DNA of 64,000 nt from Trichodelitschia bisporula. Lineage: Eukaryota. Positions 37,603 through 47,469 of the stretch are shown in pieces. The stretch covers positions 807,803 through 871,802 of the forward strand of contig ML996687.1 in NCBI GenBank assembly GCA_010356995.1. The letters are read 5' to 3'. Every line of letters begins with the position of its first letter. Position 1 is the stretch's first letter. The translations under genes were made by a program, and so were the position numbers. A model generated the notes under the pieces. It was not told where the DNA came from and made no database searches. It saw only the letters and a list, made by a program, of their open reading frames with translations.

Positions 37603-38449
37603 ATGGCTTCTTCGCTCGACCAACTACCTCCTGAAAAAATCGATGAACTCTTGCAACAGGCAGAAGGGCGCTTAAAGGCTGGAGAGACCACCTGCCCGAA
37701 TGCTGCGACTGTTAAAACCAGATTTCCCAAGCTGGACGTCGGCACCCTCCCCACCCCGTATGTTCAGCAGTCCGGACCGGTCGTGTGTGCCGACAGCAAG
37801 GCGCTCGTCCCGTCTTCACAGCGGACGGTTTCAGAGAAGCCCAGGACGCTCGTTGACCCAGTTCTAGTGCGCCAAAGACGCAAAAACGGTATGTTCTTTG
37901 CATACCTTTCCGAATATGCTGTGAGGAAAATTACCCAATTCTTCTTGACGCGGTGCCCGGAACCGTTTTGGTCTCCTTGCCGCAACCTATGAGAGATTAT
38001 TTTCATAGTTACTCTGAGCATCAAACAATCCATTCATTTTACTCCTTCCTTCGTTGGATCGTTACTGACAACCCGAAGCCCCAGATACTCTTCCAGACTG
38101 GTACAACATTCCACGGACAAATTTGACAACTGAACTCAAACGGGACCTCCAACTGCTCAATATGCGCTCGGTTCTCGATCCGAAAAGGATGTACAAAAAG
38201 CAGGGAAAGTTCAAGATACCCGAATACTCTCAAGTTGGTCAAATTGTCGAGGGGCCGACAGAATTCTACAGCGCTCGGTTGAGGAATAAGGATCGGAAGG
38301 AAACTTTTGTGGAAGATGCCTTGGCCGGCGAGGTCGAAACTGGACGGTTCAAGAGGAAGTATGAAGAAGTCCAGACCAAAAAGACAAGCGGCAAGAAGGC
38401 CTTCTACAAAGCACTCAAGGCCAAGCGAAGCAAGCATGGCAAAGGTTGA
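37603..38449 (+). CDS. FCF2: Pre-rRNA processing protein Fcf2
   Basis: After intron 37889-38084: DWYNIPRTNLTTELKRDLQLLNMRSVLDPKRMYKK...QVGQIVEGPTEFYSARL. Confidence 0.9.
37916..38021 (+). ncRNA. snR63: Intronic box C/D snoRNA, snR63/SNORD46-type, predicted guide for LSU rRNA Am2256 (yeast numbering)
   Basis: Terminal stem ATGCT (37916-20) / AGCAT (38017-21). C box GTGAGGA (37921-27) and D box CTGA (38014-17). The guide TCATAGTTACT directly upstream of D is the reverse complement of conserved LSU AGUAACUAUGA. Confidence 0.85.
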
Positions 38450-39348
38450 ACGCTGCTGCACGCAGGTACGCTTGCCACCATTCTCGACCAATCTTCAGCT
38501 TCAAAGCGGAACACACTATTAAAAGCTACATTGCCCTTATGCCGCCTTACCAGCACCGTCTCATTTTACAGCCGCTACGGATGTAGTTGAATGGGCATTC
38601 GATGAAATTGGTACATGGGCTTACGCTACATGCACGCAGAATATCTTGAGATATTCGGCTTCGTGCCTAGGAAGTGAAGAGCCGAAGGATGGGTTCAGAG
38701 GAGTTATGCTAGCATTGAGCGGGATTCCCTTGGCGACGGCCCAGGGATGCCATTGTAGATGCATGCAATCGAGCACAGTGAACATACTCCTTAAACGGAC
38801 TGTCATATCAAGAACACTTGAGCTGGAATGCCATCTGGCGTCCCAGTTCACATTGCAGTTGACTTTGCAAACGGAACATACCACGTGATAAGATGCCTTG
38901 TGCTTACCGAAGATTCCACGCAGAATGTGTGACTAATCATTCCAGGCTTGGCAGAGGCGCGGGTCCTTGAACGGCAGCGGTATTCACTCTTCTTCTCTTC
39001 TACTCTTCGTCCGTCACCATCACATCGTCTCGCACAAACCGCCGTCTCCTTTCGGATCCCCACTTGCGAGCTGACGGACATCGAAATTACGCACTGCCAC
39101 CTTCGCTTGCTTAATCCTCCGCCAATCGAGAGGCGGCACCGTCACTGCATCGAGGCGCTTCTTGCGACGACTCCTGGAGGCACGCCTTCTTCCACTCGTT
39201 AGTCACAGCGAGCACGTCTGCAAGAAGTGAATTCGACGTTCGACTGCTGGACATACAGTTAGGGAGGGAGGCGTAGATAGCAGACCCCAAGGAAGCCAAG
39301 CGGCCTCCCTTACTCCGTACCGAACGAAACCAAGAAAAGTCATCAAAG

Positions 39349-40416
39349 ATGGCGTCCACCATGACTGAAGAGCGCGCCCTCTCACCAGGAGAGGTGCCTG
39401 AGACGCAGGCCTTGACGGAAAGGCCCCAAGAGTGGGCGCAGAACCTTAACATCCACCTTGTCTGCGCCGACTGCAAGGAGTACCCGCCCAACTTGGTCGA
39501 GGAGTTTGCATCGGGCGATACGGTGTGTGGCTCTTGCGGTCTGGTTCTCCAGTCGCACGTTGTCGACACGCGCTCAGAATGGCGCACCTTCTCGAACGAC
39601 GACCAAGGCAACGATGACCCCTCGCGTATCGGTGAGGCGGCCAACCCGCTGCTCAATGGTTCACAACTTTCCACAACCATTGCCTATGGGCAAGGCGATG
39701 CGCGGAGCAGAGACCTCAACCGTGCCCAGAACAGGGCGAATGCGGACAAGACGACGAAGGCCCTGCTGGCCGCCTACAAGCAGATCGGCACACTGTGCGA
39801 CTCGTACCACCTATCGCACAGTGTGGCAGACACAGCTCGCCAGCTCTACAAGATGACGGATGACACAAAGGCGTTCAAGGGCAAGTCGCAAGACGCCATT
39901 ATCGCCAGCACAATTTTTATCTCGTGCAGGCAGAATAACGTGCCGCGTACCTTCAAGGAGATCACCTCGCTCACCAAGGTGCCTAAGAAGGAGATTGGCC
40001 GTACGTTCAAGGCCCTCGAGAAGTTCTTTCAGAAGCACACTCAAAGCACCGTGGCCAAGAACGAAACTTACACCACGACAACATCGACGAAAGCGCAGGA
40101 TCTCTGCGGGCGCTACTGCTCAGGACTCGATCTTCCGCAGCAAATCAGCGTCATTGCAGGCGAGTATGCCGACGAAATGATCAAGGCTGGTCTGTTGGCT
40201 GGTCGTTCGCCGTTATCCATCGCTGCCGTGTCCATTTACATGATGTCGCACCTGATGGGTATGCCCAAGACGCCGAAGGAGATCTCACTCGTGGCCGGTG
40301 TCAGCGATGGCACTATCCGCACCGCCTACCGACACATCTTCGAGGATCGTAAGGCTCTGATCAAGCCTGTGTGGCTTGAAAAAGGCGGCAACATGGATCT
40401 TCTACCGCAAGCTTAG
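39349..40416 (+). CDS. SUA7: Transcription initiation factor TFIIB
   Basis: Zn ribbon CADC...CGSC, B-reader VDTRSEWRTFSNDD, and two cyclin repeats (PRTFKEI, GRSPLSIAA, GVSDGTIRTAY). Intronless. Confidence 0.97.
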   Translation: MASTMTEERALSPGEVPETQALTERPQEWAQNLNIHLVCADCKEYPPNLVEEFASGDTVCGSCGLVLQSHVVDTRSEWRTFSNDDQGNDDPSRIGEAANPLLNGSQLSTTIAYGQGDARSRDLNRAQNRANADKTTKALLAAYKQIGTLCDSYHLSHSVADTARQLYKMTDDTKAFKGKSQDAIIASTIFISCRQNNVPRTFKEITSLTKVPKKEIGRTFKALEKFFQKHTQSTVAKNETYTTTTSTKAQDLCGRYCSGLDLPQQISVIAGEYADEMIKAGLLAGRSPLSIAAVSIYMMSHLMGMPKTPKEISLVAGVSDGTIRTAYRHIFEDRKALIKPVWLEKGGNMDLLPQA

Positions 40417-40931: not shown

Positions 40932-42405
40932 TCATTCGAGCTGCAGCAGCGCACGCACGCTGGGATCGCTAGACACATACACGACTGAGTGTTTGTCGGT
41001 AAAACCGTTGAACCTGGTAGCGGAGCACTTGGTGTATGCTGGTTGCTGTTAGCTGTGGTTCATCTAGAGACAACTCCGATAAACTCACCACCCATATCCT
41101 CAAAGTACATCCAGTCACCTGTCTGGATGACTTCCGGAAAGGAGCAGGCCTGGGCGATGCAGTCGATGCCATCGCACGTCGGTCCCCAGATGGAGTAGTC
41201 GACCATGTTGGGCGTCTCGTAGCCGCTGGAGTGAGCGGCATACAGGAAACGATCGCCTGCACGCAGGATACGTGGTACCGGGTTCTGGTGGTCGAAGATG
41301 ATGCTGGAGAAGTTGCCGTAAACGCCATCGTTGAGGTACAGCATATACGACGACGTACCCAAGGTAGGGTCATTGACCGTCCGGCGCGCAATCACGTGGC
41401 ACGCAAGCGTGAAGGCCGACGAGACATAGAAGCGGCCCGGTTCGCCAATGATGCGGATGTGCGGCGGAAAATAGCAGTCGAGCGCGCTCGACAGCACGGC
41501 TGCCATATCCTCGAAGGAGGCGTCGCTGCAGAAGCCACCTCCGACGTCGAGCGTGTGCATGGCAAAGCCTAGGTCGGCGGCCTGGTCGAAGACGACACGT
41601 GCGTCTTGCACCGCCTTGAGGAAAGCCTTGGGGTCGGAGGCGCCGGAGCCGATATGGAAGGCAACACCAACGACATTGAGGCCGAGGGCGTGCGCCAACT
41701 CGAGAAGATCACGGGTGTTGTCGAGTGACGCGCCGAACTTGAGGCTTAGCGGGCAAAGACTGGCCGAGTCGTCGGTCAGAATGCGCAGGTACAGCTCGGC
41801 GTCGGGCAGGAGCTGCTTGGTTTTGTAAAGCTCGTCGGCATTGTCGAAGGTGAGCTGTCTGACGCCGTTCTGAGCAGCGTAGCGGAGGTGGGACTTGGTC
41901 TTGCAGGGCTGCGCGTAGATGATGCGCGCGGGGTCAATGCCCATCTGGAGGACCTGCTCCATCTCGGCCTTGGAGGCGCAGTCGAAGCCGGTGCCGAGTT
42001 CGGCCAACAAGCGGAGAACCTGTGGATCCGGGTTACATTTGACCGCTGGTGATGTTAGCAAGTCACGCGACGAAAGAAAAACTTTGGTAACGGGATACCA
42101 TAATGCGGTTTGACGCGGCCAAGGTTCAGCTTCCACCTCAGGTGCTGGCGATAGACCTCGCCAAGGTCGGCAACAAAGAAGGCATCTTCGTCACCTACAT
42201 CGCACGTATCGTGATCGATGGTGGAGATGCGACATTCAAGGGCCTGAGAAATCAGGCGCTTAGCTTCAGTCAAGCCATGATTTATAGGGCGCAGCAAGTC
42301 CAAGTCGCTGCTACTTGCGTCTAAAACCGGTGGTGGCGGTGTTGGTGGGGTCGTTTGCAAAGGCAAATCGATGTAATCGTTAGACGTAAGAGCAGAAGGT
42401 GCCAT
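40932..42405 (-). CDS. SPE1: Ornithine decarboxylase
   Basis: AFFVADLG, PHY|AVKCN (PLP Lys), GFDCAS, LSLKFGA, FHIGSG, LDVGGGF, EPGRF, WGPTCDGID, MG|AYT...FNGF. Ends LQLE*. Two introns. Confidence 0.96.
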
Positions 42406-42474
42406 AACCCGGGGCAGCCCGCTCCTGGTTGTGTGGGTTTGCGATAGAAAGGGTAGAGTCGGGTAGTAGCAGTG

Positions 42475-42672
42475 TTAGGGGGGCCGGAACGGCTCGAAGC
42501 GGTTACTCGACGACAGACGAGGCCTCCTCGACTCTTCCTCAGAGAGAGGAAGAAGTCCAAAGGGCGTCCTATGCGGCAGCTGGAAGATTGGAGACACTTG
42601 GGAGCTTGGGGGAAGCGGAACAGGAATCAAGACGCCTGGGGGATGTCGGAACGGAGGCGCCAAGTGCGGGAT
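42475..42672 (-). promoter_or_regulatory. Non-AUG upstream ORF (uCC-like) in the ODC leader
   Basis: Stop-free frame ending ...SNRFEPFRPP-TAA about 70 nt before the ODC ATG. Only near-cognate starts are available (ATC 42672, TTG 42663). No ATG between the TATA box and 42405. Confidence 0.7.
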
Positions 42673-42831
42673 ATTTTGGTGATGTGTGATATTGGCGGGG
42701 AGAGGAACACCCGGAAGCGAGGGGAAGCCAAAGAGGAAGAGAAGAAAGAGAAAGATGCTGGGGGGGAGGGAAGCGGGGAGGGAAGAGAAGGGGGGAAGGG
42801 AGGGGGGGAACGGGTTGGATAGTATGCGGGC

Positions 42832-42840
42832 TTTTTATAT
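42832..42840 (-). promoter_or_regulatory. TATA box of SPE1 followed by a CT-rich initiator tract
   Basis: ATATAAAAA on the minus strand, then about 100 nt of pyrimidine-rich sequence (42720-42810). Confidence 0.65.
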
Positions 42841-44202
42841 TGAAACCCGTAATAGCGCGTGGGTGAGTGGGCAGGCGTACGAGCGGTTCCGGTGACTTGC
42901 GGGTTTGAGGCACCGAAACCTGCAAGGCTGTCGATCGTCTACTGAAGCACGATCAAAGGCGTGTTTGGCTGAATAAGTGGGCTTTTTGATGGGAGAAGGG
43001 ATTTTACGGAATACAGGGAACGAGGTTCTGGAGAGAGAGCAGAGGGGGTGCTGGGAGTGGGAGGAGAAGGAGGAGAGCAGAGGTGAGAAGGCCGGGATGG
43101 GAGGGGATGTGAGAGGATATGAGGGGATGAGTCGTTTTTGGTGAGGAAGGCGAAGAGAGTCAACAGATTGGGGAAGGGGGAGGGATGGAGAATGGCGGTG
43201 GAGAGGATGAGAGAATTTTTTTGTGGTGTTCGCTTCGGCCTGGCCCGGAGGCCCACACACAAGAAGCTGATGTGTGTACTCCGTACTACGTACCGTACCA
43301 TATCCCTGACTACCAGGACTACATGCCGTACCGGACACTATTATTTTGGCATTTGGGTGAGTGTTGTGAGTACCGCCGTCCGTGTGCCTTTCGGTACCTG
43401 TCGTAAGGTCCTTTCGCAACAGTGAGTGAAGTTACAGCAGGATGATACTAATATAGCTCGGCAGCCAGTCAACAGAGTGGTGATACGATACGGTGCTCCG
43501 TACATATACAAATAGGGTTGGGTGTTCGCATGTTCTCCTCCTCCCTCCCTCGAGCTCACCATAACTAAAGAGCGAGTGTGGCAACTCTCTCCTCCCTCTC
43601 TCTACTTTACTACGTTGCGTATGTACATCCGTATCTTGCAAGTATATATTGCCTGTTCAGTCCTTTGCTGCTGTTACCCGGCAGTCCCGCTGCATCGCCA
43701 CATCGCCACTCCCAGCAATCCACGTGACTCCTAGGGCGCGAAAGAGAGACCTCAATCGCCGATTACCGGATTGATGCCTTGTGGCTGCCTCGGGAACCTC
43801 TTTAGTCCTTACTGCCTCGGGCCGCAACGCACATGGGGACCATCAGCATCACATGCCAGATTCAAACCCTCCAAAAATGCCTCCCCGCTGCGCATGGCTT
43901 GGCCTACGTCACCGGGTCACGTTGTACAACCTACACGGCCCAAGGGCCCATACGTGCAGGAAGAAAGAGGGGTGTTGCAGTGTACGTCATGAGGCTGAAT
44001 ATGCTGCCCCGCTCCTTCCTCCGGCCAAGGTCATTCATCGTCGTGCTTCACGCGTACCGTACCCGTACTAGCTTCAAGTTTCACAATCCGCAAGCTTATT
44101 TAACCAGCTTTCCTCCCACTCTTTTATTTCCCTCACACAAGAACTCCAGCAACTCTTACCAACACTCCTCAATTTCAAATCCCAAACCAAACCCTCATCA
44201 TC

Positions 44203-44814
44203 ATGTCTTCCAACACCAACACCAACAAGGACCAGACCTCCACCCTTCAGTCGTATGTCGACTCGGCCAAGGGCGTCGCCCAGTCCCTCCTCGGTTCTGC
44301 CACCGGTAGCACTGCCGACAAGGCCCAGGCCGAAGACCGCAAGGCCACCGCCAACGCTGAGCACGACCTGTCCCACGCCGCCGCCAAGGCTGGTCCCTTT
44401 ACCGTCTCTTCATCCGGTGCCGTTGCCCAAGACGACCCCAACCGCAGCCAGGGCTCCTGGAACCAGACTGTCGGTGCGGGCAAGGAGTTTGTCGGTAATC
44501 TCGTCGGCGCTGAGGGCCTGAAGCGCGAGGGCATCCAGCAAAACCGTGAGGGCAAAGGCCAGGAGGCTCAGGGACAACTGAGCGATCTCGGCACGGGTAT
44601 CACTGATCGGTGAGCACTTCCTACCCAAAGAAAAAAGAAAAGAACTTCGGAGCAGTACGTGCTAACACATACAAGGGCTTCGGGTGCCATTGGCAGCGCA
44701 GTCGCTGGTCTCACCGGCAATACGGAAGAGCAGAAGCGTCGGCAGAACCAGCACGACACTGGCAAGACTCTGCAGCGCGGTGTTGAGGCCGACCTCCAAA
44801 AGCAGGACCAATAA
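44203..44814 (+). CDS. CsbD-like/Hmp1-like hydrophilic stress protein
   Basis: STLQSYVDSAKG, GSWNQTVGAGKEFVGNLVG, GQEAQGQLSDLG. After an intron, QHDTGKTLQRGVEADLQKQDQ*. Strongly biased codons. Confidence 0.8.
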
Positions 44815-45118: not shown

Positions 45119-46416
45119 TTACTCTGGTTTGCCCGCCTCTGGTACAGTTTCCAACTCGGGGGCCTCCGTCGCCGCCGTGACAGGCTTGGGAGTCTTCACT
45201 GGTGTCTCTACCTTGGCTGTCTCCTCCACACCCTTGGCGAGCTTGACCGTCTCCGAGACTGAATCGAGCGCGCCAGCCTTTCCGCCGTATTCCTTGGGGA
45301 TGTCGGGACCAAGCTCCGACGTAAGGCTGGTACCATAGCTGATGACGCTAAACTTCTTGGTCGTGGCCGAAGGGAGCAAGGCCTTGAAGAAGGTAAAGAG
45401 CCAGCTCATGACAAGAGGAACGTTGAGGAAAAACTTTTTGCTCAGCGTCTCAGGATAGTACTTGCTGAAGAGGTCAATTGTCTGCTTGGATGCGGCCTTG
45501 ATGTGGGGATCCTGGCGCAAGAAGCTGATACTTTTGTAGTCATGTACTTGGATGCCCTGGTACTGGTCGGCACCCTTGCCGAAGTCGGGGATAGGCTCTG
45601 TGGCGGTAGCGAGACTGAGCTTAGAGATGCCGAGCTCCATGAGTGCGACGCGCCAGCGAAGAAAACTGCATGCACTGGTTAGTACCTAAATCCCATGAGA
45701 TAGGGCTGTCACACGTACGTGTCGACATTTCCAAAGGTCTTCTGGATATCCTTGACCGCGCCGTAGACATTGTAGGTCACCACTTCCTTGTCCTTGGTGC
45801 TGCCCGGAACCTTCTCGACCAATGTCACGAACCCAAGCCCGCCGAATAGCTCCTCACTGAACGTCTCCTCCAAGGCCTTGAGAGGTTGGTACTCCTTGCG
45901 CCACTTGAGCGTCGCCAGAAGCTGTTCTTTGGCCTTTGGGACCACGTTGCTGTTTGCACGGAGGAACTTTTGGAGGATGAGCTTGGTGTGGAAGGGAGTA
46001 TCAGCTTTGAGCTGGACACCGTACACCTCGGCGTAGTCCGCCTTCTCAAGAATGGAGGGGAGTTCCTTCACCAGAAGGCTGAGCGGATGGTCGGCGTCCA
46101 GAGTCGGCCAGACGGGGCCAATAGCAGCAGCCTCGCTGCCAGCGGCAGTTTCAGCCGCCGGAGTTGCAGCGCCAGTGTCCGTCTTCTCAGGCAGCTCATC
46201 GCCAGCTGCATCGGTATGGGCCGGGATGGCCTCCTGCTTGGGAGAGGCTGCCGTGGTGGTGGCTGTCGTCGAGGCGCGAATAACTTCCTCCACCGGAGCG
46301 GCCGGGTCCTTTGGCGCCAGATCTGCTTCACCCACTGGCTCGGCAAGCTTCGGAGCATCGACGGGCTCGGGATGGGCCGCAGGCGGAACTGCTGTGGGGT
46401 TGGTAGGGGAAGACAT
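45119..46416 (-). CDS. SFH5: CRAL-TRIO phosphatidylinositol transfer protein
   Basis: YAEVYGVQL, ILQKFLRAN, TLKWRKEY, VTYNVYG, WRVALMELGI, QVHDYKSISFLR, YYPETLSKKFFLNVP. One intron. Confidence 0.9.
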
Positions 46417-47469
46417 GTCGACGAGCGGTGGTATGAAGGACGATGGCAAGAAGAGCAGCTGGCAGGTAACAGTTGAAGAACGGAGGAGGGGACGGCAGCG
46501 CGTGGGAAGTGAAGGTGAAGGTCGATAAAGGGAGAAAGATTGAGGGAGAGAGGTAACCTACTGAGGAGTGAGAGGCTTTTGGTTGGACGAGCAACGTTCC
46601 ATCCCCAAGCAACAGTTCAAGCCCCAGGCACCAAAGGGTGCTTGGAAGGCGTGGAAACCTGAGGACGACATGGTACGAGTACAAGAACAGGCGATGGGCC
46701 AAGGGCAGTCCTGTGCGGTACGTAGCTCTTGGCAAGTTGGAAATGTCAATTCCGCCTTCACGTCTTGTTGTCTTGTCGCATTGTCTTTTGGGTAGCTCGT
46801 CACGCACTCCACACCTATCGTATGTCTTTCTGATATTCTTTCATATCTGCTCTCAAAATGTGGGCTAATTGCCAGGTGGAGAAGGGTCAGCAATATATGA
46901 CCTCCTCTCTCGGTTCTTGCCGTTGCGCTGGGCCCATTTCATCCCTAAACTCTCTAGAAAAAAACAACAACTATTACTAGTTCTACTACCCCATCCCCAC
47001 TCCAACCACGCGCATCGTCGTGCCATGCTCACCTCAAATGTCCTACGGATGTACATATCTCCCCCAGCAAACAGTATCCCACACTGAACTGGGTCAAAAA
47101 GCTAGCCTCCGAACGTGTTAAATTCACTTAGTACTAGCATATACACTACACTGCTATGACACACTCCCCGGCCCTTTCCCTCACCTTCTCTCCCGGTCCC
47201 CACATGTGACGGCATCATGGCTGACCGCCGCTGGGCGCCGCCTGGCTGGCAAACGGATTTACTACGAACGTACAAGTGTGGTAAGCAAGCCATTCAGCGC
47301 ATCCTGTCCTATCCGAATCCATGGCTTTTTATCTTGTCCTGGCTCGCACTCTGCCCCCAGCGCCGAAAACGCCGAAGCGCTGCATCATCCCCGGCTTGCC
47401 CGCTCTTCAACTATTTATGCCTCCCTAGCCCATATCCTCCCCCCCCCCACCTTGATCGCATTGTGTCGC

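Follow-up and report, generated by a model that had tools for sequence, protein, structure and literature searches.

The window analysed here is a 64,000-nucleotide stretch of the Trichodelitschia bisporula genome that carries the gene for ornithine decarboxylase (ODC) on its reverse strand (Table 1). The three exons are separated by introns at 42098-42046 and 41088-41039, both of which are spliced out in RNA contigs of two runs, X1 and X2, that come from one sample. The 318-residue translation of exon 2 is 100% identical to the record named Trichodelitschia bisporula ornithine decarboxylase, a Pfam search assigned the gene to the ODC family in agreement with its homologues, and a search of the genome for ODC gave a single match. 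The RNA contigs equal the window sequence without differences (positions 42730-42756 were skipped as a repeat). The X1 contig is continuous from 43195 into exon 1 and the X2 contig extends to 43095; leader and ODC exon 1 lie on one spliced RNA contig with no joint in the leader. Among the neighbours identified by Pfam are Fcf2 (38069-38449, +) and TFIIB (39277-40416, +), the latter convergent with ODC, and a CsbD-like protein that scored below the curated cut-off (44104-44814, +) is divergent from it, followed by a CRAL/TRIO protein (45119-46557, -) and a cytochrome P450 (47470-48287, +).

Table 1. Features of the ODC gene and its leader, in window coordinates
Feature	Position	Strand	Remark
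ODC exon 1	42099-42405	-	start codon ATG at 42405
ODC exon 2	41089-42045	-	318-aa translation; flanking introns skipped in RNA contigs
ODC exon 3, through stop codon	40932-41038	-	
ATG-free stretch 5' of ODC	42406-43298	-	RNA contig covers up to 43195
TATA-like hexamer TATAAA, putative promoter element	42834-42839	-	RNA contigs run upstream past the hexamer
uCC frame (frame B), no ATG, 119 codons stop to stop	42475-42834	-	ORF reading
Pro-Pro-stop, inferred stall site	42475-42483	-	69 nt upstream of ODC ATG
Conserved uCC tail, 35 codons plus stop (QLPHRT...LLPLSEEESRRPR...FEPFRPP-stop)	42475-42582	-	scores 76 bits (DNA profile) and 47 bits (protein profile)
Motif invariant at nucleotide level (QLPH codons plus AG/AA)	42569-42582	-	single copy in genome
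Hairpin inside uCC, encodes LLPLSEEES (family LPLxEEE)	42530-42557	-	8-bp core conserved, loop variable
Region occupied in relatives by hairpin, ACG, PPP uORF and uCC start	42600-42830	-	no detectable module
Candidate start ATC (93 codons; A at -3)	42754-42756	-	in frame, absent from initial annotation; without homologous support
Candidate start ATC (71 codons; A at -3)	42688-42690	-	in frame; without homologous support
Candidate start ATC (65 codons; A at -3)	42670-42672	-	in frame; without homologous support
Candidate start TTG (62 codons; C at -3, G at +4)	42661-42663	-	in frame
Candidate start ACG (30 codons; A at -3)	42565-42567	-	10 nt 5' of internal hairpin

Upstream of the ODC start codon the nearest ATG is found only at 43301, giving an ATG-free length of about 895 nt. 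An initial annotation of this DNA had reported the lack of ATG between 42840 and 42406, correctly so, although the actual run is twice as long. One frame of this leader, called the uCC (upstream conserved coding region) frame or frame B below, has sense codons from 42834 to 42478 and the stop codon TAA at 42477-42475, its last residues being ...SSSNRFEPFRPP-stop. It had been described as open for at least 62 codons and ending RFEPFRPP-stop; both hold, and the frame is in fact open for 119 codons. Taken as properties of a single sequence these features are weak. When the 435 nt were shuffled 5000 times with dinucleotides preserved, 16% of the shuffles were without ATG, 12% contained a closed ORF of at least 119 codons and 5.5% an ORF of at least 62 codons ending in Pro-Pro-stop, which was combined with the absence of ATG in 0.9%. 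Freedom from ATG over 790 nt of leader was seen in 0.6% of shuffles. It is because of its conservation in relatives that we judged the uCC frame to be real. The TATA-like hexamer had been thought to mark the start of the leader, a view that finds no support in the X1 and X2 contigs, which extend upstream of it, though contigs cannot show a start site. A protein search with the 93-residue uORF peptide gave none among 80 candidates at E up to 1, a Pfam search of the peptide found no family, and Rfam 15 covariance models gave no match at E up to 5 over 42300-43400.

To place the frame in its family, fungal loci on metagenome contigs were fetched by alignment of ODC exon 1 only, and the leader therefore had no part in their selection. 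We kept 80 of at least 154 confirmed loci, among at least 594 pattern matches, a sample biased towards close ODC relatives. Of these 80, 79 have an upstream frame that terminates in Pro-Pro-stop, the one miss (L070) having a leader of 53 nt. Dropping 31 near-identical or very short leaders left 49 non-redundant ones, the window included, and all 49 carry Pro-Pro-stop with mixed Pro codons and a TAA (48) or TAG (1) stop. The preceding residue is R or K in 48 of the 49, and the one before that F or Y in 43. The conserved end is thus [FY][RK]PP-stop and not the FEPFxPP-stop originally proposed, E being found in 11/49 and P before F in 19/49. Between the uCC stop and the ODC ATG lie 14 to 218 nt, in all three frames (19, 17 and 13 leaders), and this variable gap therefore makes the uCC independent of ODC coding.

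The initial annotation had also proposed leader alignment and dN/dS as a check, and here the C-terminal end proved to be under amino-acid constraint. For the last six uCC codons dN/dS was 0.08 in frame versus 2.9 and 1.8 in the other frames, with 0.75-0.88 for the spacer after the stop and 0.05 for ODC as controls; these values were pooled over 24 loci in three groups with non-independent pairs, and were anchored on PP. Over the ten codons upstream of a QLPH motif (Table 1) the ratio was 0.69, and the window's own tail compared with five relatives gave 0.28-0.46 in the uCC frame. The proposal of a non-AUG ODC uORF with C-terminal prolines is in this way borne out, as the uCC of Pezizomycotina ODC, with Pro-Pro-stop in every non-redundant leader and a constrained end.

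The tail is the only part of the window's uCC that matches relatives. BLAST of the L020 leader against the genome found 42473-42582 as sole match (81% identity), and the DNA profile of the tail, which reaches 76 bits on the window, scored at most 1.4 on shuffles and 37-91 on held-out loci. The motif at its beginning was matched in 48/49 leaders with the same Leu and His codons, and where Arg follows it is AGG in 34/34; the residue after the His always has a codon starting AG or AA. For the QLPH(R/S/K) codons pN is about equal to pS, at about 0.12, in all frames, which indicates constraint at the nucleotide level. Further downstream the 8-bp stem of the internal hairpin is kept in most of 40 sequences; its covariation is weak, with 83 of 500 shuffles reaching the score, and folding of 42470-42610 is not exceptional (z -1.4).

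A motif fixed at synonymous positions, a retained stem, and survival of the tail in four loci that lack a start module (see below) would fit a tail that is mainly an RNA element, its 14-nt motif and hairpin controlling mRNA level or scanning while the frame is little translated here. The Neurospora ODC leader would fit it as well: according to the review PMC2811004 it represses about 30-fold, of which only about 3-fold is translational, with partial relief by polyamine depletion. The last six codons, however, vary synonymously yet keep [FY][RK]PP-stop, the window itself shows in-frame constraint, and the stem has weak covariation and no Rfam match; we consider this explanation unlikely.

The leader alignment revealed a second uORF in the relatives, started by ACG and overlapping the uCC. 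It comprises 28-41 codons (62 in L073), contains N-x-x-PPP and occurs in 38 of the 43 leaders that have at least 300 nt upstream of the uCC stop. Of the other five, L021 has it in a weaker context, while the window, L040, L079 and L061 are without it. The ACG has a purine at -3 (A in 37/38) and G at +4, and a near-invariant hairpin of 7-8 bp usually lies about 33 nt upstream of it (32 loci analysed). No shuffle out of 500 reached the covariation score of this hairpin, but one pair carries the signal; internal and upstream stems alike are conserved rather than covarying. All four Pro codons occur in the PPP, whereas the amino acids that these bases encode in the other frames are variable, and dN/dS of the ACG/PPP frame is 0.15 versus 1.67 and 2.21 in these frames, the choice of loci by motif biasing pN low. 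A hexamer TATA[AT]A is found within 500 nt 5' of the ACG in 9/38 relatives, at scattered distances of 45-450 nt.

Inside the ACG frame lies the family's uCC start, AUU (17), UUG (16), ACG, AUC or CUG in 36/42 aligned leaders, from which the frame is open to Pro-Pro-stop. The position 41 nt before PPP holds a near-cognate codon with A at -3 in 37/37 loci versus 14.9 expected from the frame-A (ACG frame) residues, a comparison made among related sequences. The distance from uCC start to PPP is 41 nt in 36/37 loci, L066 being the exception, whereas the length of the uCC ranges from 71 to 84 codons. At this start the wobble base follows its neighbour: Asp is GAT before Phe or Tyr, which yields AUU, and GAC before Val, which yields ACG where GAT would yield AUG. 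AUG is avoided throughout, the stretch from the module (hairpin, ACG, PPP uORF and uCC start) to ODC being ATG-free in 35/38 relatives versus 0.67 expected. The leaders of L026 and L075 have one ATG each, 79 or 64 nt before the ODC ATG and downstream of the uCC stop.

From the ACG to the uCC stop the distance is 3n+1 in 35/37 loci, the exceptions being L001 and L066. In L066 (about 1490-1750, +) the ACG and Pro-Pro-stop frames are fused in frame into an 85-codon uORF with both PPP and PP-stop. L001 has a 55-nt insertion between the QLPH motif and the uCC hairpin region that appears intron-like (GT...branch point...AG) and holds the locus's only leader ATGs; its removal restores the uCC frame and the 3n+1 offset. 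A leader intron linking frames A and B was considered and rejected, as the window's RNA contigs have no joint, and L020, L041, L046, L048 and L080 are without ODC intron 1 and have an unchanged layout.

The constant offset and the fusion in L066 could also be read as the trace of an antizyme-like +1 frameshift from the ACG frame into the Pro-Pro-stop frame, which here would start from ACG 42850. This codon stands at the 3n+1 offset in a context of A at -3 and G at +4, and in frame A the invariant motif reads Ala-Ala-Ala-stop. We regard such a shift as very unlikely. In 37/37 loci a conserved near-cognate start belongs to frame B itself (against the 14.9 that frame-A coding alone would give), and a pair of overlapping ORFs is therefore enough to account for the constant offset. 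Moreover, in 36/37 loci frame A either ends upstream of the motif or, in L066, is joined to B, only L073 reaching the motif, and the window's frame A is dissimilar to that of the family, its ACG 42850 having been noticed post hoc and possibly lying outside the mRNA. This ACG stands just 5' of the TATA-like hexamer and opens a frame (42850-42569, -) with PPP at codons 28-30 that stops at the TAG of the invariant motif, with the family's offset and no sequence similarity to it. It lies in very C-rich DNA and may be due to chance.

The module itself is missing from this genome. A DNA profile built from the module of 24 loci scored 23-90 bits on 12/12 held-out loci but found no match in 1200 nt of the window's leader, and a genome search for the exact module pattern gave nothing. 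A protein profile of the N-terminal part of the uCC frame scored below 0 bits in all three frames, with no similarity to relatives, and the window has no in-frame near-cognate codon at the aligned position of the family start. Matching of the window's frames by eye to the N-terminal halves of relatives was dropped, the profiles giving it no support. By these profiles this genome appears to keep only the last 36 or so uCC codons, without the start module. Three further loci (L040, L079 and L061) have a Pro-Pro-stop tail without the module; they retain an LE[RH]LxFS stretch that the window lacks. In a quick tree, with six short loci omitted, the window groups with L020 and further loci that bear the module (branch support 95) and not with these three, and its place therefore suggests more than one loss of the module.

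With hairpin, ACG, PPP uORF and family start all undetectable and the N-terminal half unrelated to that of relatives, the uCC might here be a decaying relic, its frame rarely entered and any switch weak or off. This we hold to be quite improbable, as the tail is as intact as in module-bearing relatives (76 bits against 37-91 in held-out loci), 119 codons are open, and the leader is free of ATG over about 895 nt (0.6% of shuffles for 790 nt). Three other loci retain the tail likewise, and the quick tree speaks for more than one loss.

The loss bears directly on where the frame could be entered. ATC 42690, ATC 42672 and TTG 42663, named at the outset as candidate starts, are indeed in frame; since the module with the family start is missing here, none of the three corresponds to that conserved start. 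Further in-frame near-cognates had been overlooked, namely TTG 42630, ATT 42627, GTG 42597, CTG 42579, ACG 42567 and ATC 42756. The candidate starts give uCC lengths of 30-93 codons, to be compared with the 71-84 from the relatives' family start. An in-frame NUG is present at the position of TTG 42663 in 39/45 leaders, including at 60-61 codons from the stop in the three other loci without the module. NUG makes up 56/95 of the Leu codons there versus 143/294 in ODC, not above ordinary Leu codon use, and plain Leu conservation may account for it. At the site of ACG 42567, ACG makes up 32/34 Thr codons in the aligned leaders. The uCC frame also holds a Pro-Pro-Gly at 42642-42634 (-), lying 30 nt past ATC 42672 and 48 nt past ATC 42690, and it is a matter of speculation whether this could substitute for the lost PPP stall.

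With the frame, its conservation, its coding constraint and the avoidance of AUG observed, and with the relatives' conserved start and ACG-started PPP uORF beside them, we think it likely, by analogy with characterised systems, that this is the uCC of Pezizomycotina ODC, a leaky uORF without AUG start, and that its slowed termination at Pro-Pro-stop would form a polyamine/eIF5A switch. For the window's uCC we infer translation, stalling and dependence on polyamines and eIF5A from this analogy. Against this reading we count the absent start module and the unrelated N-terminal part here, as well as the nucleotide-level constraint in the tail and the mostly non-translational effect in Neurospora. 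In the proposed switch most scanning ribosomes would bypass the weak starts and reach the ODC AUG. At high polyamine levels eIF5A-assisted termination at Pro-Pro-stop would slow, and the ribosome stalled there would block scanning and queue ribosomes over the weak starts, raising use of the uORF. More uORF use would mean that less ODC is made, a negative feedback. In most relatives a stall closer to the uCC start, 41 nt 3' of it, is probably provided by the overlapping PPP uORF. Since the module appears lost and the tail kept in this genome, ribosomes would probably enter its frame at one or several of the near-cognate codons dispersed along it (42690, 42672, 42663, 42567).

The layout in relatives leads us to a further idea, which we offer tentatively and regard as rather doubtful, of a switch in two tiers: the PPP stall of the hairpin-preceded ACG uORF would halt the scanning complex that is first in the queue at the uCC start. 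Polyamine-inhibited eIF5A would cause the stall at the invariant PPP, so that one non-AUG uORF loads another, and the PPP stall would make responsive a uCC start whose own stall is about 235 nt away. Alternatively, the constant spacing could come from the fit of the frame-A peptide in the exit tunnel. If the two-tier idea were correct, the constant 41 nt would serve as a natural ruler of the distance between 80S and 48S in the queue, the window and three other loci would be natural deletions of tier one, and L066 a natural fusion.

The uCC class was described by Ivanov, Loughran and Atkins in 2008, as cited in the review PMC2811004. According to the review, Pezizomycotina ODC leaders carry a uCC of about 100 codons whose C-terminus has neighbouring prolines and for which AUU, UUG or ACG are the putative starts. 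The window's leader shares with this class its place in front of ODC, the lack of AUG, the adjacent C-terminal prolines and a conservation that is strongest at the C-terminus, and the three putative starts are codons seen in the relatives here. The review describes a single uCC of about 100 codons, whereas the relatives have a Pro-Pro-stop frame of 71-84 codons and an overlapping ACG/PPP frame; its mention of ACG and of 100 codons may mean that its authors had seen the ACG start. It also reports a near-cognate start in good context in many uCCs, while the window is without the conserved start and has non-conserved ATCs with A at -3. The Neurospora leader data in the review at most suggest that the Pezizomycotina uCC depends on polyamines and eIF5A, the uCC itself not having been tested directly as of that 2009 review. 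In N. crassa extracts AUU, CUG and ACG codons do initiate (PMC5487733). A literature search found no second overlapping ACG/PPP frame described for fungal ODC leaders, though supplements of the 2008 and 2018 primary papers may contain one; the available parts of PMC11550727, PMC5009743, PMC5487733 and PMC4505036 describe no second overlapping frame in these leaders.

In AZIN1 (PPW) and HOL1 (PS-stop), as presented in PMC11550727, polyamines impair eIF5A, ribosomes pause at the proline motif and the queue raises the use of weak starts. The AZIN1 uCC has an AUU start and a PPW stall, and shares with the fungal uCC a near-cognate start, a proline stall motif, the mRNA of an ODC homologue and an expected negative feedback. 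Its stall occurs in elongation, whereas here PP stands at the stop; the likeness is one of description, and animal and Pezizomycotina uCCs are of independent origin according to PMC2811004. The HOL1 uORF of S. cerevisiae shares a proline-dependent termination stall in a fungal polyamine gene (PMC11550727); HOL1 is however a transporter and its uORF ends PS-stop, not PP-stop, so that this likeness too is one of description. The tiny and small uORFs of plant AdoMetDC offer another parallel, with two overlapping uORFs on a polyamine-synthesis mRNA, the second ending near proline (PMC2811004). Both plant uORFs are started by AUG and the first permits reinitiation, in contrast to the ODC leaders of fungal relatives, where both have near-cognate starts and the first has a conserved PPP.

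The window's element is a variant of the known uCC switch, and uORFs that end in Pro-Pro-stop are a published class, to which one more member would add little. What deserves attention is the arrangement of two uORFs in the relatives and its loss here. Such a pair of uORFs, which overlap, start at near-cognate codons and both contain a proline stall motif, at an invariant spacing, could provide exact mutations for testing the ribosome-queue model of how starts are chosen in a tractable fungus, and this module-less genome would be a natural control for the Pro-Pro-stop tail acting alone.
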